10,477 bases of DNA from a virus (taxonomy: Duplodnaviria > Heunggongvirae > Uroviricota > Caudoviricetes): IMG/VR virus record IMGVR_UViG_2711768074_000015, one strand, 5' to 3'. Shown here in pieces: positions 1 to 10,477 of this stretch. A program made the translations under genes and the position numbers. The stretch's first letter is position 1, and each line of letters opens with the position of its first letter. Below the pieces are notes generated by a model. It did not search any database and had not been told where the DNA came from. It was given only the letters and a program-made list of their open reading frames with translations.

Positions 1-134
1 CGCTGTCGTTCTCAAAATCGGTGGAGCTGCATGACAAAGTCATCGGGCATTATCTGAACATAAAACACTATCAATAAGTTGGAGTCATTACCCAGATATC
101 ATCGACTCTCAAAGGTGCTCTGGATATCAACAGC

Positions 135-1442
135 TTGATCATTGACTACGATAATGAAGATGTCCAAAGTTATTGGGAAGACGTTGTATTACCGAACTTA
201 AATGATAATGGTAATAAAGCTCTCACAAGAGATGAAACAATAGCCTATATTAAAGACAGTAAGCCTTGTAGAAGAATTAAAAGATTAATACATGATGATG
301 CTGTGTTGGAGGAACAAAAGGATAAAAACTTCATTGCAAAAATGATTGCAGAATATGCTGTGTCTAGAAATGCAATTATTTCTAGCAACACATCTGGCAA
401 TGTCATTCGGGGTGATGAAAGCGGAGTAAAATGGATTCAATGTGGTAATATCTTTGTCTCCCTATTTCATAAGGTTCAAGATGATCATGAAAACGATGGA
501 GATAGGATTTGGCAAACTCTCAATGATTCTCTCATTGAATGGAAACCATCTTATTATCAGTTAATAAAATCTGAAATTCAGAATGCAATCGAAGCTGAGG
601 CTTTATCTTTTGTAAATCATTTGGCTAACGATCATTACGGTCAAGCTGCGTGGTTAAATGAGATATTAAAATCAGACTCGCCTGATATTAGATGTAGAAA
701 TATTGACTTTGTATTTGGTAATTTATCAGAAGAGCTTTATCAAAGACTTAAAAATAATAATACGCTGGATGAATTTATCAAAAGTGTTTTTGATAGCTAT
801 TCAAATGAATACGCTAACAGCGGAGTTGCTGCATTGCTCCAATATTGCTCTTCAAAAATGGATCTGCCATCAAATAATGATACTTATCACGAAATGTATC
901 ATGCTTTAAATATGAATTTGTCTTCAAAGAATTTTGAAGATGGTCATATTTCTACTGGCACTATTTTCTTTGATACAGAGTCGAACAAATGGTATTTATG
1001 TGTATCTGCGGCATGTGATTTGGTTCCTACTCAGGGTAACGACCCTCACCATGTAAGATTAAGTCCGCACAGGCTCATTAAAGTTCTGGAGCTTTTTAAC
1101 GCCAGTCAGAGTAAAGCATTGCCATTTGCTGAACATTCGAAATATATATATGTAATGCATAAAAATCAAAGAAAATATCTCTCTATTTTCGAAGGGGATA
1201 AAACGCTTCCTGTTGTTGATTATATGGTGGTGTTGAATCATGGAACAACAGTTGATGGCGAAGAAAAAAATATTATTTCTGCCGTGTTTTTAAGTAATAT
1301 GGATGGCAACGTGCAAAATGTTCCTGTCCGACTCAAACTTAAATCTCAACTGAGAACTGGTTATGCAGAAAGATATCAGGCTATAGCGTCTCAGTATAGC
1401 TCAAGGATTGGTGTGGATTATGTATCAATGATGCTACCATAA
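135..1442 (+). CDS. Hypothetical protein, AT-rich cargo gene, function unknown
   Basis: Uninterrupted 435-codon ORF in a markedly AT-rich block. There is an in-frame stop at 75..77, only a TTG at 135 with no clear Shine-Dalgarno, and the first in-frame ATG is about 70 codons in (near nt 342), so the 5' end is uncertain. I recognise no family signature. There is a weak D-x13-EEK pattern near the C-terminus (VVDYMVVLNHGTTVDGEEK) that could be read as nuclease-like, but this is speculative. Confidence 0.5.
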   Translation: MIIDYDNEDVQSYWEDVVLPNLNDNGNKALTRDETIAYIKDSKPCRRIKRLIHDDAVLEEQKDKNFIAKMIAEYAVSRNAIISSNTSGNVIRGDESGVKWIQCGNIFVSLFHKVQDDHENDGDRIWQTLNDSLIEWKPSYYQLIKSEIQNAIEAEALSFVNHLANDHYGQAAWLNEILKSDSPDIRCRNIDFVFGNLSEELYQRLKNNNTLDEFIKSVFDSYSNEYANSGVAALLQYCSSKMDLPSNNDTYHEMYHALNMNLSSKNFEDGHISTGTIFFDTESNKWYLCVSAACDLVPTQGNDPHHVRLSPHRLIKVLELFNASQSKALPFAEHSKYIYVMHKNQRKYLSIFEGDKTLPVVDYMVVLNHGTTVDGEEKNIISAVFLSNMDGNVQNVPVRLKLKSQLRTGYAERYQAIASQYSSRIGVDYVSMMLP

Positions 1443-1513
1443 TTATTATATTTTAGGCGTGGTGATTTTTTTTCGCCATGCCTATTTTATATTTATCATC
1501 ACAATGATGTTGT

Positions 1514-1930
1514 TTATTTTTGTTTAAGTCTTCTAAGCTTCATGCATTCTAATGAGAATAATAATAGAGTTGTGCTGTATATAAAGCCAGAGTTAGTTAA
1601 TAACTTTAAATTTAATGCTTCAGGATTTTCACTGAGAAAGTGAAAGGCATAAACTAAGTATACAGCTAAAGTAGCCGTTCCAATTGTTGGTCCAATATCG
1701 CCTTGATCATGAGGTTCAAGGTTTACATTGAACTTGAAGATTAGCCATTCAAATCCCCAAGTAAAAAAAACAACTAATATCATGGCTGCGAATAATTTCG
1801 CGATGTTATCTGCTGATGGATTCATCAGAACAGATTGTTTCTGAAAAAATTCACAAAGTGAGAGTCCGAAAAAAATAAAAAAAAGTGGTCTGGAACTAAA
1901 TTTTTCAAAAACTTTGAATAGGGTTTCCAT
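1514..1930 (-). CDS. Small integral membrane protein (3-4 predicted TM helices), function unknown
   Basis: ATG at 1930 with AAGG upstream. The 138-aa product is dominated by hydrophobic stretches (LFFIFFGLSLCEFF, AAMILVVFFTWGFEWLIF, ATLAVYLVYAFHF, FIYSTTLLLFSL). AT-rich like the neighbouring 435-aa gene, and convergent with it. Confidence 0.5.
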   Translation of the reverse strand: METLFKVFEKFSSRPLFFIFFGLSLCEFFQKQSVLMNPSADNIAKLFAAMILVVFFTWGFEWLIFKFNVNLEPHDQGDIGPTIGTATLAVYLVYAFHFLSENPEALNLKLLTNSGFIYSTTLLLFSLECMKLRRLKQK

Positions 1931-1968
1931 TTTCTTTACCTTCAGGATTATATTAGCTATTCTGATAC

Positions 1969-3198
1969 TTAGGCTACCAGAGCATTTGATCTTTGAGCTT
2001 GAACGTAATCACTCCACCATTGCATCAAACTCTGTCGCTCTATCAGATATTCTGCACGATTGTATGCTGCGATAATTTCATCTTTTTTCGAGTGGGCAAG
2101 CGCTGCCTCAAGAACTTCAGCTCTGAATTTACCAGACTCCTCTGCCGCTGTTCGTGCAATAGAACGCATACCGTGAGCTACAAGCTCGCCTCCGAACCCC
2201 ATTCGGATGATAGCTGCGTTGGCTGTTTGTTCATGCATATGATTAAGAGGCGCTTTTATGCTGGGGAAAACCCATTCTCTATGCCCACTTATTGATTTCA
2301 TTAATTCAAGGATGCGCAAAGCTTCTTTACTCAAAGGAACTTTGTGAAGCTTTTTCATTTTCATGAAATCAGCAGGAATGTTCCAAATGCTGTTGGTTGT
2401 ATCAATATCAGACCACCTTGCGCGAACGGCTTCACCCGGACGAACCCATGTCAACAATTGCCATTCAATTAGCATACGTGTTTCCAACCGGATTGACGCA
2501 TTCGTCAAAGATTCCATAAACCTTGGCAATTCGCTTGGGGGAAGGGCAGGCATATTTTGCTTTTTTGGTTTACTGAATCTTTGACCAAGGTTGTCAGCCG
2601 GGTTGAACTCAATAAGTTCTTCAGTAGCTGCCCACCGGAAGATTTCATTCAGACGTGAAATGATACGGCGTAGAGTTTCCAATACGCCTCGTTGCTCAAT
2701 AGGATCAAGGTGTTGTTTTAAGAGCTTAGGTCGGATCTCATTGATAGGGACATTACCCAGACCGGGAAAGACATTTCTCTCTAAGCTGCGCCAGATGTCT
2801 GCTGCATGGTCTTGTGAGATACCTGATGTCTTTACCTTCTCATCTAACCATTTCCGCGCTACGGCTTGGAGAGTGTGCTCAGTAGCACTCTTTAATGCCT
2901 TCGCCTTATCGTTGTTATGGATTTGGGGATCAACACCATTTGCCAGAAAGGAGAGATATTCATCACGTAAGGCTCTGGCTCTTGCAAGGGTAAGGTGAGG
3001 ATATGTCCCAAGGCTCATTTTGGTTCTTTTCTTGCTCACTGGTACTGCATACCTGAAATACCAATTTTTCTTGCCTCCTTTCGCCAAAGGAGCGATTCGT
3101 AGAATCAGACCATCACCGTCAAACAAGTTGATTTCTTTATCGGCTGGCTTGGTGCTTTTGATTTCAGTGTCAGTGAGCTTCTTAGCGATTTTTGCCAT
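1969..3198 (-). CDS. int: Tyrosine recombinase / integrase, phage P4 (CP4-57 IntA-like) family
   Basis: The translation has the P4-type N-terminal arm-binding region (MAKIAKKLTDTEIKSTKP...FDGDGLILRI...WYFRY). The C-terminal catalytic region is HGMRSIARTAAEE ... AHSKKDEIIAAYNRAEYLIERQSLMQWWSDYV, colinear with P4 Int as I remember it (catalytic Tyr in the AYNR-type motif). I chose ATG at 3198 (GAGG 7-12 nt upstream; product starts MAKIAKK) over the ORF-track start at 3240, which has no Shine-Dalgarno. Confidence 0.9.
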   Translation of the reverse strand: MAKIAKKLTDTEIKSTKPADKEINLFDGDGLILRIAPLAKGGKKNWYFRYAVPVSKKRTKMSLGTYPHLTLARARALRDEYLSFLANGVDPQIHNNDKAKALKSATEHTLQAVARKWLDEKVKTSGISQDHAADIWRSLERNVFPGLGNVPINEIRPKLLKQHLDPIEQRGVLETLRRIISRLNEIFRWAATEELIEFNPADNLGQRFSKPKKQNMPALPPSELPRFMESLTNASIRLETRMLIEWQLLTWVRPGEAVRARWSDIDTTNSIWNIPADFMKMKKLHKVPLSKEALRILELMKSISGHREWVFPSIKAPLNHMHEQTANAAIIRMGFGGELVAHGMRSIARTAAEESGKFRAEVLEAALAHSKKDEIIAAYNRAEYLIERQSLMQWWSDYVQAQRSNALVA

Positions 3199-3201
3199 TT
3201 T

Positions 3202-3238
3202 GGGACCCTCGGTTTTTGGACCCTTCTTAGTGGGTCCC
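3202..3238. promoter_or_regulatory. Three copies of a 7-bp GGGACCC-type motif at 15-bp spacing in the leader of the P4-like integrase
   Basis: GGGACCC at 3202..3208, TGGACCC at 3217..3223 and GGGTCCC (the inverse complement) at 3232..3238, immediately upstream of the integrase ATG at 3198. The alternative reading is a repetitive GP(T/K)K peptide if translation started at 3240. Confidence 0.3.
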
Positions 3239-3294
3239 ATTCAGGGTGCCATAACTCGTAGTTCTCAGCAATTCTCACTGGACGACAATAGACG

Positions 3295-3328
3295 TAAAAA
3301 AGCCCGCAGAGCTTGTGCTGTGTGGGCT
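3295..3328 (-). terminator. Terminator-like hairpin followed by a U-run on the minus strand, about 36 nt downstream of the tmRNA 3' end
   Basis: Minus-strand arms GCCCACACAGC / GCTCTGCGGGC (about 9 of 11 pairs, 4-nt loop) followed by TTTTTT (the plus-strand A-run at 3296..3301). The position fits the native terminator of ssrA. Confidence 0.45.
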
Positions 3329-3363
3329 TAGTAGACTTCATTGAACTTCAAACAACTAAAAAG

Positions 3364-3400
3364 TGGTGGAGCTGGCGGGAGTTGAACCCGTATCCGAAAA
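3364..3400 (-). ncRNA. ssrA: 3'-terminal fragment of tmRNA (ssrA), a partial copy acting as an att-site junction, not an intact gene
   Basis: The minus strand reads UUUUCGGAUACGGGUUCAACUCCCGCCAGCUCCACCA. The last 27 nt match the T-arm, acceptor 3' strand and CCA end of E. coli tmRNA as I remember it (...GGACGCGGGUUCAACUCCCGCCAGCUCCACCA). The 3 differences lie at the 5' side and one would break the T-stem. The sequence upstream of the fragment (3401 onward) does not resemble the tmRNA body. Confidence 0.75.
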
Positions 3401-3448
3401 ATTCTTAACCAATTGAATATTAATGATTTTTCTAATTTAAAATACCTC

Positions 3449-3470
3449 ACGTGCATTTTACGTGCATATT
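3449..3470 (+). repeat. Tandem direct repeat ACGTGCATTTT / ACGTGCATATT (11-bp period)
   Basis: Read directly: ACGTGCAT at 3449..3456 and again at 3460..3467, about 50 bp from the att junction core and just downstream of promoter-like TTGAAT / TAAAAT elements (3412..3442). Candidate arm-type integrase sites or an operator. Confidence 0.5.
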
Positions 3471-3656
3471 GTAGTACCTCTAACGTCCTGATTCTGTCCA
3501 ACATTTTGAAGTGTTTAGGCGCCACTGGGGCGGTGATTAGCGCTGTTTTGTGCTGTTCATAGCACTTCAAGACTATTCAATTCAGAGCAATCGTTGAAGA
3601 ATTACCCGTAAGGTAATATCATACTATTTAGGTAACTGCGGTTATCACCATCAAGG

Positions 3657-3691
3657 GCCACTGATGACGCTGTTATCATCAGTGGCTTTTT
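3657..3691 (+). terminator. Rho-independent terminator (11-bp perfect stem, 8-nt loop, T5 tail) on the plus strand
   Basis: GCCACTGATGA (3657..3667), loop CGCTGTTA, TCATCAGTGGC (3676..3686), then TTTTT (3687..3691). No plus-strand ORF of 60 aa or more lies upstream of it in the ORF track, so it would terminate a noncoding transcript or act as an attenuator for the operon starting at 3734. Confidence 0.6.
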
Positions 3692-3733
3692 GTACCTTCA
3701 CTGCACAGCCAGTGAAGTGTTGAGGAGACTAGC

Positions 3734-4075
3734 ATGAGAACAGTAGCGAGAAGATCGATACAGACGATTGAGCGTCGGACTCAACTCGTCAGTTCTTTTG
3801 TTGACTCAAACACAGCAAACGAGTTCTTCGTGAGAAGACTGAGTGATCGTGTCTCCCCGGCACGTCAGCTGTTTATTGTGACATTGAACAATGAGGTTCG
3901 TGACGGTGACGTGATCCCGTTCGCTGAGATCGCCATGAACAAAGAAAAATTGCGCTATGTTGTGAAGCCAGCAGATCAGTATCCTCAGTATGTAAGCAGT
4001 AATCTGCTGAAGAAAATTGAAGCGGCAATTGCTCTATACATGCAGAAGAACTACAGGGAAATTAACTACCATTAA
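3734..4075 (+). CDS. Hypothetical protein (113 aa), first gene of a two-gene cargo operon
   Basis: ATG at 3734 with GAGGAG 6 nt upstream. The next gene follows 11 nt downstream. I recognise no family signature. Confidence 0.6.
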   Translation: MRTVARRSIQTIERRTQLVSSFVDSNTANEFFVRRLSDRVSPARQLFIVTLNNEVRDGDVIPFAEIAMNKEKLRYVVKPADQYPQYVSSNLLKKIEAAIALYMQKNYREINYH

Positions 4076-4086
4076 AAGGTTGCTGA

Positions 4087-4854
4087 ATGGCTCCTGCGTT
4101 AATACCTTCATATAACAAGGACTTGAACATTACGCCATTTGGCGAAAAACGTCTTATTGAGTCATTCTATTTTTTCACTGCCGAGGCTGGCTTACTGAGG
4201 GCTGATGAGTACATTGTCAGTTCTGGTGAGTTTCAGTACTACTTGGATGTGTATCAACTGGGATGTTCCACCGACGACTTTTTTTTAGACTATGGCAGTG
4301 ACCTTCTTGATTCGAAGGTTCCAATGCAGGATCTGGTCAATACCCTCTTGGGTCTTGATATGGTAGACGATAACAAAACGATAAGAATAGGTCGTATACA
4401 GTTCAACGACTTTAATTTTATCGAAGAGAACGGTCAGATGATGACCGGAAAGCAAGTGAAAAGCGCTGTTATCGCACAGGATTTCCAATCAGCAGGTTTG
4501 GCGCGTGAGATCTATAAAATGCTTGCGCGAAAGCATGAGTTTCTCATCTGCGATAACATTCAAAGTATTGCCGGTGGTGCTCTTTGGGCTAGTAGCATCA
4601 TTCGAATTGCCGAGGTACGGATCTACAATTCACGCACGAAGAAATTTATGGACATACTTGGTCCAGGTGCGCGTGGCGTTTCAGGTACTTTGCCATGGAG
4701 TGCGAATGATCTGTCTGTAGATGAGATTGTTCGCTGGGGTCGTGCGTATGATGATGAAAACTGTTGTCGTCACATTGTACATGTTATCTGTAAGGACCGA
4801 CTCATTGACGATCAATTTCATGATTATGTTTCGATAGGTGGCGCGACAGAATAA
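4087..4854 (+). CDS. Hypothetical protein (255 aa), second gene of the cargo operon
   Basis: ATG at 4087 with AAGG upstream, and a terminator immediately after the stop. The segment SAVIAQDFQSAGLAREIYKML loosely resembles the Q/R-x-x-G-x-G/A motif of GNAT acyltransferases, but this is a weak pattern match, not a call. Confidence 0.6.
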   Translation: MAPALIPSYNKDLNITPFGEKRLIESFYFFTAEAGLLRADEYIVSSGEFQYYLDVYQLGCSTDDFFLDYGSDLLDSKVPMQDLVNTLLGLDMVDDNKTIRIGRIQFNDFNFIEENGQMMTGKQVKSAVIAQDFQSAGLAREIYKMLARKHEFLICDNIQSIAGGALWASSIIRIAEVRIYNSRTKKFMDILGPGARGVSGTLPWSANDLSVDEIVRWGRAYDDENCCRHIVHVICKDRLIDDQFHDYVSIGGATE

Positions 4855-4859
4855 CCATC

Positions 4860-4888
4860 AAAAAGACCCGGCATTTGCCGGGTTTTTT
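4860..4888. terminator. Bidirectional intrinsic terminator between the convergent cargo operon and the phage integrase
   Basis: Stem CCCGGC (4867..4872), loop ATTT, GCCGGG (4877..4882), flanked by AAAAAGA upstream and TTTTTT downstream, so it gives a U-tail on both strands. Confidence 0.7.
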
Positions 4889-4895
4889 CTTCAAA

Positions 4896-6074
4896 TCACT
4901 TCTTCATTCCAGATTCCATTGCGGTTTTCCCGTCGTATTCAGCCAGGTATTTACCGTAATTGCGGAACAGCATTTCCGGCCCCTTATGCCCCATCTGCCC
5001 GGCAAGCCAGAAAAGGTTTACACCCTGGCTAATGTGTCTGGTGGCGAATGTGTGGCGCGTCTGGTACGGGTTACGGTAGCGCACACCAGCTTTTTTCAGG
5101 GTCGGCACCCATGCTTTTTTACGGATAGCGTCGGCGTTCGTCCAGGGATCTCCCGTTTTCGGATCGCTGAATATGAACTCACTTTTCATAAAGGTGTATT
5201 GCTTCTGCGCCTGCAGGGCCGCCAGCGCCTCACTGTTCAGCTCCACCTTACGGGTACCGGCTTTTGTCTTGGTGCCTTTAAGTACCCCTACGACACTGGC
5301 CGCCTGTATGTGCGCTGTATTACCTATAAAGTCGATATCGGTCCAACGTAATGCGCATAGCTCAGAGCTGCGTAGCCCTGTATTGAAGGCGAAGCGGAAC
5401 AGATTCTGCCATTCCTGATACTTGCAGTGCTGATATATGGCACTGGTTTCCGCAGGCGCAAACGGATCAACTTCGTAATCGTCGGCGTTCGGTTTACTGT
5501 CGACCACGTGATACCGGCTGGCGCTGACAAGAGTTACCGGGTTAATAGTCAACAGGCCATCAGTTACAGCCTCATCAATGGCGCTGCGCAGAAATGACAG
5601 GTTATTCCTGATTGTTTTCAGCTTAGTTTTTCGGCTGGCTATCCAATTTTTTAGTACCGCAGGCGTCAATTCTGTTACATGTAGTTTATGTAGTTCTGAT
5701 AGTGCTGATAGACATTTTTCGTAACCGCCAATGGTTGACGGCGACAGATTGCGGTTCATGCAAATTTTCAGGTATTCATCAAGATAGGACTTAATATTTT
5801 GGGTTTTCTTTACTACACCGAATAACTCCAGTTTTTTGGAACTGGGGAAATATTTCGCATATTCAAACGTTCCGCTGGCGATCTGATTTTGTATCTCCCC
5901 TAGCAGGCGCTCAGCATATTTAATACCACGTGTATTTGCCTCAAGCCGAGACAGGGGCTCCCTGCAAAGAACCCCTTTATATGTGAAAGTGATAACTAGT
6001 GTTGAAGCAGTTTTATGCTTACGAATAGTTACTCCTCTTGGCAGAGATAATAATCCTTGTTCTTTCTTGCCCAT
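4896..6074 (-). CDS. int: Phage tyrosine integrase (lambdoid type, with N-terminal arm-binding domain)
   Basis: 392 aa. ATG at 6074 with AGAGG upstream. The C-terminus YQTRHTFATRHISQGVNLFWLAGQMGHKGPEMLFRNYGKY has the R-H-x-x-R ... Y catalytic pattern of tyrosine recombinases. The N-terminal block GVTIRKHKTASTLVITFTYKGV is typical of an arm-binding domain. The 5' end overlaps the 3' end of the upstream xis-like gene. Confidence 0.9.
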   Translation of the reverse strand: MGKKEQGLLSLPRGVTIRKHKTASTLVITFTYKGVLCREPLSRLEANTRGIKYAERLLGEIQNQIASGTFEYAKYFPSSKKLELFGVVKKTQNIKSYLDEYLKICMNRNLSPSTIGGYEKCLSALSELHKLHVTELTPAVLKNWIASRKTKLKTIRNNLSFLRSAIDEAVTDGLLTINPVTLVSASRYHVVDSKPNADDYEVDPFAPAETSAIYQHCKYQEWQNLFRFAFNTGLRSSELCALRWTDIDFIGNTAHIQAASVVGVLKGTKTKAGTRKVELNSEALAALQAQKQYTFMKSEFIFSDPKTGDPWTNADAIRKKAWVPTLKKAGVRYRNPYQTRHTFATRHISQGVNLFWLAGQMGHKGPEMLFRNYGKYLAEYDGKTAMESGMKK

Positions 6075-6238
6075 TTTGAAACCTCTATTAAGTCGACCCA
6101 GCGTTCTTTAACTCCGTCGACTTTTAATACATGAACCCCTTCTTTCCATATTCCTCTTTGTATCCGTTTGTTAACGGCATCAACCGTTTCTCCCGCGTCG
6201 CGGCAGTAGGTTGATATAGGCACGCAATCCAGCCCCAT
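6029..6238 (-). CDS. xis: Excisionase-like small DNA-binding protein (Xis/AlpA-type winged helix)
   Basis: 69 aa, immediately upstream of int and overlapping it by 46 nt. GAGGTGA lies 5 nt before the ATG. The sequence ...ETVDAVNKRIQRGIWKEGVHVLKVDGVKERWVDL resembles the lambda Xis core (ETVRRWVRE...PPVKDGREY), recalled from memory. Confidence 0.6.
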   Translation of the reverse strand: MGLDCVPISTYCRDAGETVDAVNKRIQRGIWKEGVHVLKVDGVKERWVDLIEVSKWARKNKDYYLCQEE

Positions 6239-6246
6239 ACATCACC

Positions 6247-6393
6247 TCACATAACACTCAGCCCACGGCAGTGGCACCACACGTCAAACATTCGCTTCAC
6301 AACTTCACGACAGTAGAAGCCGTCAACATCTCGCGTCAGGTTATAGCGATTGCCGTAACGCTGGTGGACCCATTGTTCAAATGCTTTATTCAT
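6247..6393 (-). CDS. Small hypothetical protein (48 aa, Cys-rich), below the ORF-track length cutoff
   Basis: My own translation: MNKAFEQWVHQRYGNRYNLTRDVDGFYCREVVKRMFDVWCHCRGLSVM. ATG at 6393 with AAAGGAAG upstream. The stop lies 8 nt before the xis ATG. It fits the operon packing. Confidence 0.4.
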   Translation of the reverse strand: MNKAFEQWVHQRYGNRYNLTRDVDGFYCREVVKRMFDVWCHCRGLSVM

Positions 6394-6396
6394 TCT

Positions 6397-6639
6397 TTAC
6401 TTCCTTTTTATGGCTCGTAATTTTTTCAGGTGCTTTTCCTGCTCAGTGTCCGCGAGAATTTTGCGGTACTCCTGGTGGTCAATATGTTCGAACAGGCAGT
6501 TTAACTCACCAATGCGTACCCGCCCGGATCGTCCGTCCATCCGTCGAAAGAACACTGAGTGCTCAGTGATGCGAGTAATCACCACGGGGTATCCGGCTCT
6601 GTCCGTGTATATCTGACCGCGTTGAATCAAAGCGAACAT
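6397..6639 (-). CDS. Hypothetical small phage protein (80 aa)
   Basis: The ORF-track frame 6397..6675 starts at a TTG. I prefer the in-frame ATG at 6639, preceded by GGGGA, which also avoids overlapping the upstream 27-codon ORF. Product begins MFALIQRGQIYTDRAGYPVVITRI. Confidence 0.5.
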   Translation of the reverse strand: MFALIQRGQIYTDRAGYPVVITRITEHSVFFRRMDGRSGRVRIGELNCLFEHIDHQEYRKILADTEQEKHLKKLRAIKRK

Positions 6640-6643
6640 GTGG

Positions 6644-6727
6644 TTATCCCCATCGACAAATTGAGAACACAACAAACGCTACTGCGAATACCACCCCCAG
6701 AGTTACGATTGCATCAGGCCAGCTCAT
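6644..6727 (-). CDS. 27-aa hydrophobic single-TM peptide (MSWPDAIVTLGVVFAVAFVVFSICRWG)
   Basis: ATG at 6727 preceded by a textbook AGGAGGTGA at 7-nt spacing. TAA stop at 6644..6646, 4 nt before the next gene's ATG. Not in the ORF track because of its length. Confidence 0.4.
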   Translation of the reverse strand: MSWPDAIVTLGVVFAVAFVVFSICRWG

Positions 6728-6762
6728 TGATTCACCTCCTGCGGCGTCCTGGTATTCGATTT

Positions 6763-7331
6763 TCATTCCGGATGCTCCTGAGCCACATTGAAATCGCCAT
6801 GATCACGACAAGGCATCACAACAAATTCAGGATTGCCATACATTGAGTTGATGATGGAATCAAACTGAATTCTGACCGCTTGCCCGTCACCGGAGGAACG
6901 TAACTGGACGGGAATAAATTTACGCTCACGACCAAACATCTTCTCTGGATAACTCAGGTAACCCGCCTGGATCACCGGGTGTGTACAGAGGTCAAATTTT
7001 TTCGGAATGATGCGTTCCAAATCCGGAAAACAACCGTCCACCAATTTAATGCCGGTAATGGACAGCCGGCGCTGAAACTGGTCGCGATGAACAGGATCGG
7101 CTCTTTACTAAAAATCAGCTCTGTCGTTTCGGCTTTGGCCGGGACGCCACCTTCGAACTGGACAATGATGTTTTTCTTCGTCCGGATGCCGTGAGTCATG
7201 CGCAGTGCTACGAAACCATTGGTTGCCTCAATATGTTTTGGCGTGATGTGAAGACCGTTCAGGTAATAACGAACGTCGTTTTTAGCAGCGCACACCAGAG
7301 CGGCGCGAATAAGTTTTGACTGGATGATCAT
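6763..7331 (-). pseudogene. Beta-sliding-clamp (DnaN) domain II-III-like protein lacking domain I, reading frame interrupted by a frameshift near 7045..7075
   Basis: The two overlapping minus-strand ORFs (6972..7331 and 6763..7044) are colinear with E. coli DnaN as I remember it: AAKNDVRYYLNGLHI...ATNGFVAL vs AHQDVRYYLNGMLF...ATDGHRLA; ILFIATS/ELIFSK vs FIFTSK; then in the second frame KLVDGCFPDLERIIPKKFD vs KLVDGRFPDYRRVLPKNPD and EFVVMPCR vs AYVVMPMRL. The frame switch falls where the plus strand reads GCCGG-TAATGGACA-GCCGGC. The start ATG at 7331 has a GGAGG Shine-Dalgarno and overlaps the upstream stop (ATGA). Confidence 0.55.
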
Positions 7332-8077
7332 GCTTTATCCTCCCATCCGATTACCTGAAAAAGCCCCATCTTCGGGTGATACCAGCGTGTGCCGCGTGGT
7401 TCAGCCTCTGACATCATTTGGTGGAACGCCGCCATAAATGTCTCAAGCTCGACGACAGCCCTGCGAGACAACAGACCGTCCGGAGTCATAAATTCGTGCG
7501 TGTCGGTAGGGATGTGGTAGGCGTTGACCAGATTCCGACACTTGGCGTCACTCATTCCGCTTTTGGCTACCACCTGGCGGTAACCGACATATCCGGTGCG
7601 CATTGTGCCGCGTTTGATGTTCTCCACAGCTTTGGTGACCGTTTCGATCTTCTCTTCAACATGACTCAGGCGCTTCTGCTGGCGAACGGCATCGGCGGCC
7701 ATTGCAGCGATCATCTCCATTTCCGTCAGCGGCGCGTGAGTTCGGAAATAGCTGTTAACCAGTTCGCGCTGAACCTGCCATGCAAGAGCATCGTTAAAAG
7801 GCTTCGTCAACATCAGGTAACCAGACTCGAAAAGAATGATCCCTTTGGCAGTTCGCGCGGCAAAGGCATCAGAAAGTGACTCCGTACGTATTACGTCCGC
7901 AGTCATTTCAAGAAAATCCACCCCTTCGATAAAGTGAGAACGGTTGCGGTTAAACGCAGCACGGGCGGTACCTTCCGGGCGCTGGTGGACGTCATCAATT
8001 ATTGCAAATGTCACAACACGCTGACCGCGATATTCGATTACCGGAAACTGTTTGTTGTTGATGGTTACAATATTCAT
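7328..8077 (-). CDS. KilA-N / ORF6N (Bro-N-like) domain protein, antirepressor-like
   Basis: ATG at 8077 with GGAG 5 nt upstream (the ORF-track start at 8152 is less likely). The N-terminus MNIVTINNKQFPVIEYRGQRVVTFAIIDDVHQRPEGTARAAFNRNRSHFIEGVDFLE has the shape of phage KilA-N/ORF6N DNA-binding domains. This is a family-level call from memory. Confidence 0.6.
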   Translation of the reverse strand: MNIVTINNKQFPVIEYRGQRVVTFAIIDDVHQRPEGTARAAFNRNRSHFIEGVDFLEMTADVIRTESLSDAFAARTAKGIILFESGYLMLTKPFNDALAWQVQRELVNSYFRTHAPLTEMEMIAAMAADAVRQQKRLSHVEEKIETVTKAVENIKRGTMRTGYVGYRQVVAKSGMSDAKCRNLVNAYHIPTDTHEFMTPDGLLSRRAVVELETFMAAFHQMMSEAEPRGTRWYHPKMGLFQVIGWEDKA

Positions 8078-8120
8078 TTTTATCTCCAGACAGCCCGGCG
8101 TGTAATACCGGGCATATGTA

Positions 8121-8948
8121 TTACTTAACCTGAATAAATGGTGTGTTGGCACCGCTGGTCATGTATTGCGGCAGTGTACCGTTCCACTTGTTGATGGCTT
8201 CCAGCTCCATAACACCGGGGTTCTGGCGCAGAGCTTCACCGCGTAAACGAATAGCATCGGCTTCGGCCTGGGCTTTTGTGCGAATCGCATCTGCCTGTCC
8301 GGCAGCTTCCGCGCGCAACATGTTGGCTTCCGCTTCGCGCTGTTTTACTTCCTGCTCGCGTTGCAGGGTTTTCTGGTTCGCCGTGACTTTGGCATTAATG
8401 CTGTCGATAACAGTAGGTGGGTACTCCGGCTTACCCACATATGAGAGGCTCATTACCTGAATACCGATGGGCGTCATTTCTTCCTGAATGTCTTTAAGAG
8501 CTGCATCCAGCAGCTCAGACTTGCCGCCGTCGATAAATTTGTCGGTGGTCATTTTGCTGGCCAGTCGGTTGAGTGCGTCGGCTATCTTCTGGCGCAGGTC
8601 GGTGTCGGTAATGTCGTCCACGCCTTTGCGGTAGGTCTGAAAGACTGTGGTAACTTTGGATGGATCAACTTTGTAGGCCACGCCGATGTGATAGCCGATG
8701 GTTGTACCGTCACTCATCTGGAAACTGAATGGATCATCGTAGGTCTTCATCTGCTTAAAGGTCGGGAAGATGTAAACCTCAGTGTTCCATCCCGTCCAGT
8801 AGCGCCCAACACCGACCACTTCACCGACGCCTTTATCGTCGCCCAGTTTGTTTACTTTGATGCCCACATTACCAGGCTCAACGCGATCGCAACCGACAAG
8901 GCCAATGGTCGGCAGAACAAGGGCTAAAGCAAAAAGTAATTTTTTCAT
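8121..8948 (-). CDS. SPFH / band-7 (prohibitin-like) domain lipoprotein, predicted inner-membrane anchored
   Basis: Signal peptide with lipobox MKKLLFALALVLPTIGLVGC followed by Asp at +2 (the inner-membrane retention rule in E. coli). SPFH-like core, then a C-terminal Ala/Glu/Gln/Arg-rich coiled-coil region (QREQEVKQREAEANMLRAEAAGQADAIRTKAQAEADAIRLRGEALRQNP). The start ATG overlaps the stop of the upstream small TM gene (ATGA). Confidence 0.8.
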   Translation of the reverse strand: MKKLLFALALVLPTIGLVGCDRVEPGNVGIKVNKLGDDKGVGEVVGVGRYWTGWNTEVYIFPTFKQMKTYDDPFSFQMSDGTTIGYHIGVAYKVDPSKVTTVFQTYRKGVDDITDTDLRQKIADALNRLASKMTTDKFIDGGKSELLDAALKDIQEEMTPIGIQVMSLSYVGKPEYPPTVIDSINAKVTANQKTLQREQEVKQREAEANMLRAEAAGQADAIRTKAQAEADAIRLRGEALRQNPGVMELEAINKWNGTLPQYMTSGANTPFIQVK

Positions 8949-9133
8949 CTTTTATCCTTAGAAAAAGAAAGACCCTTATAAATGGCATAAATGCAGGGCG
9001 GGGTCAGACACGCCAGAGCAAAGCCAGAAATCACTGCTACCGTATCCTTCATTGATATGAGGGCCGGAACGATTAATCCGTAAATACATGTGATAATTGC
9101 CAGTGATATAACTATTCTGAAATAAATGTTCAT
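8945..9133 (-). CDS. Small two-TM membrane protein (62 aa), translationally coupled to the SPFH lipoprotein
   Basis: ATG at 9133 with AGGAGG at ideal spacing. Two hydrophobic segments (IVISLAIITCIYGLIVPALI and VISGFALACLTPPCIYAIY). Its TGA overlaps the ATG of the SPFH gene. Confidence 0.6.
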   Translation of the reverse strand: MNIYFRIVISLAIITCIYGLIVPALISMKDTVAVISGFALACLTPPCIYAIYKGLSFSKDKR

Positions 9134-9193
9134 GGTCCTCCTGATGTATTCGGCTTGCCTTATTTAATTGCGTCATGGTTAATTTCGTTTACG

Positions 9194-9586
9194 TCAGAAT
9201 GGTTTTGTTGCCATCAGTTCGTAATATCCGGCGCTCCATGTGTCATATTTTCTGAACCATTTTTCTGTATACTGTTTCCTGGCGATGAGTCTGCGCAGTC
9301 GTCTGATTGTTCGCTGGTGTGCGCGGGTATACTCTGTGGTTGATTCTCCACGTTTCCATATCTCATTCCTGTTGAAGATAAAACGCTTGTCAGGATAGCG
9401 TTGTCGGAATCCTGAACGTTCAAAAGCGCGGGTGGTCATAAAGAATGCCAGGTAACGAATTGCCGTTTTTCGGGTGAGGCATTTTTTTGTTCTTCCGTGG
9501 CGTGTTACAAAAAATAACGGGCCGACGGGTGTATCATGTTTCTGTAATGCCTGGTCAATGGTGCTGGCGGTGCGGTTGTCGATCAT
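9194..9586 (-). CDS. Hypothetical basic protein (130 aa)
   Basis: ATG at 9586 with GGAG upstream. Arg/Lys-rich C-terminal half. No family recognised. Confidence 0.5.
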   Translation of the reverse strand: MIDNRTASTIDQALQKHDTPVGPLFFVTRHGRTKKCLTRKTAIRYLAFFMTTRAFERSGFRQRYPDKRFIFNRNEIWKRGESTTEYTRAHQRTIRRLRRLIARKQYTEKWFRKYDTWSAGYYELMATKPF

Positions 9587-9772
9587 TTCTTTATTTCTCC
9601 CGAATAACGTTCATGACTCATTACTTCCCAGTTCCGGCCGTCGTCTTTCGATAACAGCCGCCAGCGACGGTTAACCTTCAGACTGAGATATCCGGTGCGC
9701 TGTATCCGATGCGGAAATATCCGTCGGCATCGGTACAACAACAGGACCTGCAATGCCTGCCGGTGGATCCGC

Positions 9773-9988
9773 TCAGGAATGCGTGTTGCTGTTAATGCCA
9801 CCGGTTTCCTCCTGAGCAGGTGCTGTTATCTGATACCCCGCTCTTTCTGCCAGCCGTATGAATGTATCCATGCTGGCAATCAGCTCGCCATCGCGGACTT
9901 TGCAGACACCTGTGACTTGGCCATTTTCAATTGTCATAACGATCTGCACTTTTTCGTGCACAACAGATACAGGGGATAAATTAGCCAT
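9773..9988 (-). CDS. Hypothetical small protein (71 aa)
   Basis: ATG at 9988 overlaps the stop of the upstream gene (TGATG), indicating translational coupling. No family recognised. Confidence 0.5.
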   Translation of the reverse strand: MANLSPVSVVHEKVQIVMTIENGQVTGVCKVRDGELIASMDTFIRLAERAGYQITAPAQEETGGINSNTHS

Positions 9989-10347
9989 CAGTTAATTCCT
10001 CCGCTGATATATTTTTCTTTCGCGTAATCAATAATCTCTTGAAAAAGGTTGTCTATAATTAACTTTCCGGTTTCAGTCAGGTATTCAGTATGTTGATTAA
10101 TCCCGATAGCATTCTGGTATGCAGTGTGGATTTCGGTTTCACCCTCCACCCGGCCCAATTCACCACGGGTAATACCTTCGAAGCGTAACAGCAACTGGTT
10201 TATAAACTGTTCAGTTATTTCTATGGTCGTAATGTTCCCATCAGGAAGGTCAACAATAAGCAGATTACCACCTGTTTTACGTTTTATTCGATGGAGTGCC
10301 GCAACAGCTATACGGCGACGATATGTATTAATGGGTTCATGTGTCAT
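9988..10347 (-). CDS. Hypothetical protein (119 aa)
   Basis: ATG at 10347. The ORF fills the gap to the next gene with a coupled stop/start. No family recognised. Confidence 0.5.
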   Translation of the reverse strand: MTHEPINTYRRRIAVAALHRIKRKTGGNLLIVDLPDGNITTIEITEQFINQLLLRFEGITRGELGRVEGETEIHTAYQNAIGINQHTEYLTETGKLIIDNLFQEIIDYAKEKYISGGIN

Positions 10348-10477
10348 TTGTTATTTCCCGTATGCTTTCCTGAGAAACGTAAGCGTGCAGCAAGAACCGT
10401 ATTGACGGGGATGTGTTATTCAGTCGGCAGTGCTACGCGCCAGGGGAGCAGTTCGCCGACCCGGTTTATCGGCCAGT

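Follow-up and report, generated by a model that had tools for sequence, protein, structure and literature searches.

What is the very end of a tmRNA gene doing, on its own, between the integrase genes of two different elements? This question is raised by the window analysed here, i.e., the whole 10,477-nt stretch of IMG/VR virus record IMGVR_UViG_2711768074_000015 (Caudoviricetes), for which a first-pass annotation, made from the sequence alone, had proposed that a second element integrated into ssrA ahead of an island already resident there. We hold with high confidence that the segment is the int-proximal attachment junction (attR, as counted along ssrA) of a lambdoid prophage integrated in the 3' end of ssrA, ahead of a resident P4-type islet. 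The feature is real and had been correctly interpreted, but it represents already known biology, and the same junction is present in public genomes.

The copy of the tmRNA 3' end, which had been put at 37 nt, is 36 nt long and unique in the window: the minus strand of positions 3364-3399 (read from 3399 to 3364, TTTCGGATACGGGTTCAACTCCCGCCAGCTCCACCA) is identical to the 3' terminus of the 363-nt E. coli ssrA at 34 of 36 positions, and what is matched is the end of the gene, including the CCA, and not its interior. Identity is perfect over 3364-3390 (minus strand), which equals the final 27 nt of E. coli ssrA (27/27; CGGGTTCAACTCCCGCCAGCTCCACCA), and is followed by two mismatches at 3391-3392 (TA for CG) and seven matches at 3393-3399, after which the similarity is gone at position 3400, where the P arm of the prophage begins; the described pattern of an identical 3' portion and a divergent 5' portion joined to phage-type sequence is, thus, what the alignment returns, with positions 3391-3399 (minus strand) representing a phage-borne imperfect extension of the ssrA block. 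With up to three mismatches permitted, the window still contains a single copy of the 27-mer, and none of the 200 shuffles gave a match. ARAGORN found neither a tmRNA nor a tRNA anywhere in the window, and the Rfam tmRNA model (RF00023) aligned only the T arm, the 3' acceptor strand and the CCA (18.6-19 bits versus a gathering score of 47), so that the covariance-model search suggested at the outset did recognise the fragment as a tmRNA 3' end, while a complete tRNA-like domain and a tag reading frame above the RF00023 threshold are absent from the window according to both ARAGORN and the covariance model. It follows that this is a true 3'-terminal fragment lacking the gene body, as had been claimed, and the possibility of an intact tmRNA gene at, beside or contiguous with the fragment is ruled out by ARAGORN and Rfam within the window. 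A mere chance resemblance to tmRNA has practically no probability, given the 27/27 identity, the failure of all shuffles to produce a match even at three mismatches, the placement of the fragment at the tmRNA 3' end by the covariance model, and a position and orientation relative to ssrA in the relatives that are just those expected of a displaced gene end.

No annotation whatsoever is present in RefSeq at the position of the orphan fragment in the relatives. Their orphan fragments are often damaged, the one in the window being undamaged: the junction of O26:H11 strain 11368 (locus L001, 23268-23290) has a 3-nt deletion at the CCA end of the fragment, and in the orphan fragments behind several different elements, GCTCC has lost 1 nt to become GCCC, just as in the psaA fragment of K-12, a deletion that recurs beside unrelated upstream elements. 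Damaged fragments were encountered at loci L001, L075, L113, L098, L100, L102, L104, L115, L120 and L059, with that of L104 showing a larger deletion.

If the fragment is a displaced gene end, its counterparts should be recognisable in other genomes, and the set of 5,426 complete E. coli genomes that served for comparison contains all of the expected states. No single genome of this set covers more than 67% of the window, which instead consists of two independent halves meeting in the fragment: positions 93-3399 match NZ_CP026085.1 at 99.9%, and positions 3364-10378 match strain E110019 at 99.9% apart from one IS3 insertion. (A search with the whole window yields approximately 78,000 matching places because an IS1 end is included in it.) The state with the islet only is exemplified by NZ_CP026085.1, where an intact ssrA is directly joined to the spacer, the hairpin and the islet integrase; removing the phage in silico, i.e., joining the ssrA end to window positions 3363-3164, yields a sequence with 100% matches in many genomes, and this phage-removed junction is covered to at least 80% in at least 962 of the 5,426. 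The state with the phage only is that of E110019, in which the islet is absent and the fragment with its P arm abuts ATCATGATTGGACGG..., the native ypjA-side flank that also follows the psaA fragment in K-12, the full ssrA being located beside smpB at the other prophage end, some 48 kb away. The tandem state is that of O103:H2 strain PV16-126, whose junction is 100% identical to the window over 3300-3450 and 99.7% identical over 3200-3560, with ssrA about 53 kb away, and O26:H11 strain 11368 has the same tandem layout with a related phage. Junctions of this type (P arm, fragment and islet leader) were found in 127 of the 5,426 genomes.

The 363-nt ssrA is identical in every one of these states and to that of K-12, and ARAGORN recognises each copy. 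In all three lysogenic relatives examined (E110019, O26 11368 and PV16-126), it is full-length, has smpB as its neighbour on the far side of a lambdoid prophage measuring 48-53 kb, and has the same orientation as the fragment downstream of it. The comparison with strains having one or both of the elements, likewise suggested in the first-pass annotation, thereby supports the proposal that a second element entered ssrA in front of a resident island, with islet-only, phage-only and tandem states all existing in complete E. coli genomes. Further relatives of the phage can be found among the PhiR12 prophage records (PV340549-54; E. coli C and K-12 hosts), whose int module is 99.2% identical to that of the window and one of which, PhiR12_5, has the same fragment ahead of an integrase remnant; the literature search found no paper mentioning this phage. 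As for the IS3-family insertion of the E110019 prophage (locus L002, 11285-12498; corresponding to window positions 6591-6593), it is absent from the window, and the matches flanking it overlap by 3 bp.

How the fragment came to be where it is can be read from the free phage LMessi (PP925823.1), in which a P arm, the 27-nt block and a P' arm beginning with CTTTTGATAGG are contiguous beside a homologous int gene. Because this attP is uninterrupted and includes the 27-nt block, the phage must carry its own copy of the ssrA end, and because the ssrA of lysogens is of the host type (GACGCGGG) while the orphan fragment is of the phage type (GATACGGG), the crossover is to be placed within the 27-nt block. 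That block, the identity segment shared by attL (ssrA), attR (the fragment), attB (ssrA of islet-only and native genomes) and the attP of LMessi, covers the T stem, the T loop, the 3' acceptor strand and the CCA; a crossover in or near the T loop therefore seems likely, in keeping with one of the sublocation classes into which integrases that target tDNAs have been divided (PMC4383910). The segment at 3364-3399 (minus strand) can, therefore, be listed as the core of the prophage attR on the combined grounds of the ssrA alignment, the shuffles, the covariance model and the LMessi attP, and 3400-3733 as its P arm on the grounds of comparison with the relatives and the LMessi attP. The P arm contains two direct ATGCACGT octamers 11 bp apart (plus-strand ACGTGCAT, 3449-3456 and 3460-3467), which are the sole exact copies in the window. 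The P arm has its pair at -77/-66, and a second pair with the same orientation is found at +92/+103 in the P' arm of the relatives and LMessi, which means that, at the level of sequence, repeats distinct from the core are present on both arms; by analogy with lambda, they may well be the arm-type binding sites of Int.

The proposed course of events would then be as follows. Judging by the relatives, ssrA should be located on the minus strand to the right of the window, some 50 kb off; both it and the far prophage end lie beyond the window, and their intactness in the source genome is inferred from the relatives. The phage attP would bring its 27-nt copy of the ssrA end, and an Int-mediated crossover inside that block would rebuild a full ssrA at the far prophage end out of phage-supplied sequence, together with a phage-supplied terminator (a terminator-like hairpin of phage origin is indeed present about 125 nt past the ssrA CCA in the lysogens among the relatives). 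At the near end, the host's original ssrA 3' end would be displaced downstream to 3364-3390 and joined to phage P-arm sequence from 3391 onwards, and all that lies to the left of 3364 would be DNA formerly downstream of ssrA, namely, the leader, terminator and integrase of an earlier P4-type islet at the same site, the spacer and hairpin of which would have been left stranded behind the orphan fragment. Both predicted products of excision are found in nature, i.e., attB (ssrA joined to CTTTTTAGTTG...) and attP (LMessi), and Int and Xis can presumably still excise this copy of the prophage.

The element to the right of the junction is indeed equipped with the lambdoid int/xis module that had been assigned to it. 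The lambda-type integrase (4896-6074, minus strand; Pfam Arm-DNA-bind_2 and Phage_integrase) is transcribed towards attR, and its start is overlapped by 46 nt by the excisionase gene (6029-6238, minus strand; phrog_2917, E = 2.5e-41), so that a tyrosine integrase lies inside the element with int and xis adjacent and pointing at the junction. Between attR and int, there is a two-gene cargo cassette (3734-4854, plus strand; 113 aa and 255 aa, phrog_2594 and phrog_3307) composed of ORFs at 3734-4075 and 4087-4854 (both plus strand) and preceded by a promoter-like site at 3594-3622 (plus strand); neither of the two products has a Pfam or PADLOC match. In O26, the same slot is occupied by a DUF4760 gene on the opposite strand and, in phage LMessi, by nothing, and it looks like a variable cargo position. 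Where the cargo and int genes converge, there is a G+C-rich hairpin with T runs on both sides (4866-4883; a weak C0465-like Rfam match). Of the prophage, the window includes just the 7 kb nearest to int; its counterparts in the relatives are complete lambdoid prophages of 48-53 kb with a repressor, Q, lysis genes, a terminase, an HK97-type head and a lambda-type tail, and with type III effector genes at the far end. Sp17 is a further prophage that we take to be located at ssrA. The E110019 prophage carries espM2, an NleG-like gene and espW, which are the effectors given for Sp17 in PMC2323221.

The left-hand integrase (1969-3240, minus strand) is the P4-type tyrosine integrase of the resident islet. 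Its Pfam domains follow the order Arm-DNA-bind_3, Phage_int_M (central) and Phage_integrase (catalytic), and in islet-only genomes, its gene is situated directly downstream of ssrA in the same direction; in RefSeq relatives, the start is the ATG at approximately 3198, resulting in a product of 409 aa. The P4-family label that the first-pass annotation had given to it holds as far as the domain architecture is concerned, but the protein is only 48% identical (over 408 aa) to IntA of K-12 CP4-57, and the islet is, therefore, a different one. CP4-57 had at first been suggested for the left element by a 100% match to a strain labelled DH5alpha (a 4.83-Mb record), which, however, carries a different islet; the identification fails also because true K-12 has a different sequence downstream of ssrA, in addition to the low identity of IntA. 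The record in question, NZ_CP026085.1 (L008), has a P4-type islet other than CP4-57 at ssrA, unlike K-12 MG1655, and its label is probably wrong. The description of the two elements as unrelated needs a similar adjustment: the arm-binding domains of the two integrases do differ, but the enzymes are distant relatives, with 25% identity across 179 residues of the catalytic domain.

The remainder of the islet within the window consists of a gene for a hypothetical protein of 138 aa (1514-1930, minus strand; phrog_6556) and the 3' part of a "response regulator receiver domain" gene (93-1442, plus strand), which was identified by comparison with the relatives and is cut on its upstream side by the right end of an IS1 (1-91, plus strand; junction at 91/92, assigned by the IS match). 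This gene is uninterrupted at the point of the IS1 in all of the relatives examined. There, the islet comprises four genes, those of the integrase, the 138-aa hypothetical protein, the "response regulator receiver domain" protein and an ATP-binding protein, and ends at an IS3 truncating ygaQ. The large cargo pair, i.e., the gene of window positions 93-1442 and, in the relatives, the one upstream of it (L008, 27312-30780), has as its annotated products a "response regulator receiver domain" protein of 582 aa and an "ATP-binding protein" of 572 aa, and the part of the 582-aa gene contained in the window (93-1442) has no Pfam or PADLOC match. It is possible that this pair is defence-type cargo. 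A defence-system assignment for the cargo of the two elements was rejected, PADLOC having returned zero matches and Pfam none for most of the genes. No second ssrA fragment was found within 23 kb beyond the islet in the relatives, and this, taken together with the IS3 truncation, makes the islet look immobile in them.

Which of the two elements came first? The islet with the identical IS3 and ygaQ truncation is seen on its own as well as alongside either the window-type or the O26-type phage, and its presence both with and without a phage, as well as behind different phages, indicates that the islet came first. The wider distribution of its leader has the same appearance: among species representatives, it follows an intact ssrA in Citrobacter, Klebsiella, Kluyvera, Enterobacter, Raoultella, Buttiauxella, Brenneria, Sodalis and Xenorhabdus, and follows an orphan fragment plus foreign sequence in Yersinia ruckeri, Serratia, Photorhabdus, a Klebsiella replicon and Salmonella diarizonae, while in IMG/VR prophage contigs, it is located behind fragments joined to at least 10 distinct P arms. 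This is the pattern of a long-resident islet in front of which phages arrive. The Klebsiella case is that of Klebsiella sp. WOUb02 (locus L024, 7150-7300), in which an orphan fragment of about 46 nt and the islet leader are carried not by a chromosome but by a 775-kb replicon that is annotated as a plasmid ("plasmid unnamed6"). The reverse order, with the phage integrating first and the P4-type islet later entering the displaced ssrA fragment as a secondary attB, is conceivable insofar as the fragment retains the complete 27-nt T-arm/acceptor block, which an ssrA-targeting integrase could in principle recognise; it is, nonetheless, very unlikely, considering that the identical islet (IS3 and truncated ygaQ included) lies directly behind an intact ssrA in a phage-free genome, that the same islet is found behind at least two different phage P arms (O26 and PV16-126), that in the relatives it is the IS3-truncated and seemingly immobile remnant just described, with no far-end ssrA fragment within 23 kb, and that the many P arms ahead of one and the same leader in the IMG/VR and GTDB loci fit a fixed islet and changing phages. 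The junction, in other words, shows the arrival of the islet before that of the phage.

A separate matter is whether the array of the source strain was made by an integration event of its own. The prophage of PV16-126, the closest tandem genome, is a mosaic with a window-type P arm and an O26-type P' arm, diverging from the window beyond 6754, so that arrays may have been passed from one lineage to another, or altered after integration, by homologous recombination. A preformed array that reached the strain, or was rearranged, through exchange among E. coli lineages by homologous recombination or transduction would also agree with the two halves of the window matching different strains at 99.9% each and with arrays of this type being shared by as many as 127 genomes, and we regard such a history as a genuine, albeit minority, prospect. 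Related phages (the PhiR12 records and LMessi) have, however, been deposited as phage genomes with named hosts, which makes fresh integration plausible, and import would change only the route by which the strain acquired the array, the junction still being an exact site-specific attR structure.

Integration in front of a resident islet would also account for what lies between the fragment and the islet integrase. A spacer of 34 nt (CTTTTTAGTTGTTTGAAGTTCAATGAAGTCTACT; 3330-3363, minus strand), which in islet-only genomes is located directly 3' of the CCA of the intact ssrA, is followed by an islet-borne, Rho-independent terminator-like hairpin with a U6 tract (3296-3329, minus strand), recognised by folding, by its conservation behind ssrA and by its match to the 3' end of the IsrM model. 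The terminator-like hairpin that had been pointed out here is real, being an imperfect G+C-rich stem at 3300-3329 followed by the U6 tract at 3296-3301 (minus strand), but it is not a separate feature: it belongs to the conserved leader of the islet, which many genera of the Enterobacterales retain behind ssrA. Taken over its full 116 nt, the region showed no unusually good folding (z = -1.3). Before the arrival of the phage, the hairpin was probably the terminator of ssrA itself, now orphaned.

The best Rfam match in the window is not to tmRNA but to the Salmonella sRNA IsrM (RF02763; 3296-3373, minus strand, E = 1.6e-12), of whose model the last ca. 57 nt, corresponding to the spacer and terminator, are nearly identical to window positions 3296-3352 (minus strand). 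In S. Typhimurium, IsrM is located just upstream of the integrase gene STM2763 in the same direction (PMC2330248), as the leader in the window is relative to the islet integrase; what the window lacks is 253 internal positions of the model, and with a score of 53 bits against a gathering score of 376 and only the spacer/terminator end aligning well, it should be viewed as containing the islet leader and not an IsrM gene. An IsrM gene was accordingly rejected for this locus, the match being confined to the ends of the model, and full IsrM was also absent from the seven loci tested for it (six IMG/VR loci and the S. diarizonae locus). The likeness of the IsrM 3' end and its position upstream of STM2763 suggest that IsrM ends at the same islet-borne terminator, a small lead on the origin of this virulence-associated Salmonella sRNA. 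One might go further and suppose that IsrM arose from an equivalent leader by an insertion of approximately 250 nt before the islet-borne ssrA terminator, upstream of a homologous P4-type integrase, that such junctions can be birthplaces of sRNAs, and that the fragment and terminator of the E. coli tandem array might be transcribed as a short tRNA-like RNA; this we consider improbable, the homology being that of the terminator end and the transcription part being hypothetical.

Could the segment, then, encode a functional sRNA, be it an IsrM homologue or a tRNA-like fragment, and not be an inert scar? The E-value of the IsrM match and the high conservation of the leader across genera might be taken to say so, yet the former comes with the 253 missing positions and the low bit score, and the latter is explained by the role of the leader beside an intact ssrA. 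As, furthermore, no minus-strand promoter-like site is present upstream of the fragment, the genes adjoining it on its upstream side are transcribed away from it, and the orphan fragments of relatives have the 1-nt and 3-nt deletions expected of non-functional DNA, a functional sRNA at this place appears exceedingly unlikely, and an attR scar followed by the leader of the older islet is the reading preferred here.

The fragment, thus, shows to the base where, at the ssrA hotspot, a lambdoid prophage that probably carries effectors meets an integrase islet that is older and has decayed. Its significance reaches little beyond annotation (K-12 has the equivalent fragment annotated as psaA), although the junction does offer ready PCR targets for prophage-excision assays.

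Among the known systems, psaA (b4645) at the right end of CP4-57 in K-12 is likewise a displaced ssrA 3' end at the distal junction of an element, in the same orientation to ssrA. It is, however, the shorter of the two and has been damaged by a 1-nt deletion (ACTCCGCCAGC-CCACCA), whereas the window fragment is undamaged; and while psaA belongs to a P4-type element and abuts the native chromosome (ATCATGATTGG...), the fragment of the window is that of a lambdoid phage and has a second integrase islet as its neighbour. The effector-carrying lambdoid prophages at ssrA in EHEC/EPEC strains (O26:H11 11368, O103:H2 and E110019) share the integration site, the int/xis module and the attR layout with the window, the O26-type junction differing in its divergent P arm and the 3-nt deletion of its fragment; integration of Stx phages at ssrA has been documented as well (PMC2323221, PMC8065619). 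Phage LMessi has a homologous int and attP, but is about 84% identical and has no two-gene cargo in the interval from att to int.

The general framework is that of Islander/TIGER for tandem arrays at tRNA and tmRNA genes (Hudson, Lau and Williams 2015, PMC4383910, where Williams 2003, J Bacteriol 185:1059, is cited). There, an island extends from the target gene that it has regenerated to the 3' fragment that it has displaced, no target is more enriched than the tmRNA gene, and some fragments are noted to be damaged. Arrays arise when several elements use one site, and for an array to be called, every member needs an integrase and a fragment of its own (PMC4383910). In the present case, an integrase is present in each of the two elements, and a fragment in that of the phage; the distal end of the islet lies beyond the window, and the islet of the relatives ends at the IS3 and truncated ygaQ without a second fragment, so that a strict Islander call in the relatives would be one island plus a remnant, the distal fragment of the inner islet having been lost to the IS3-associated truncation. 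In principle, nothing distinguishes the arrangement seen in the window from the tandem arrays of Islander.
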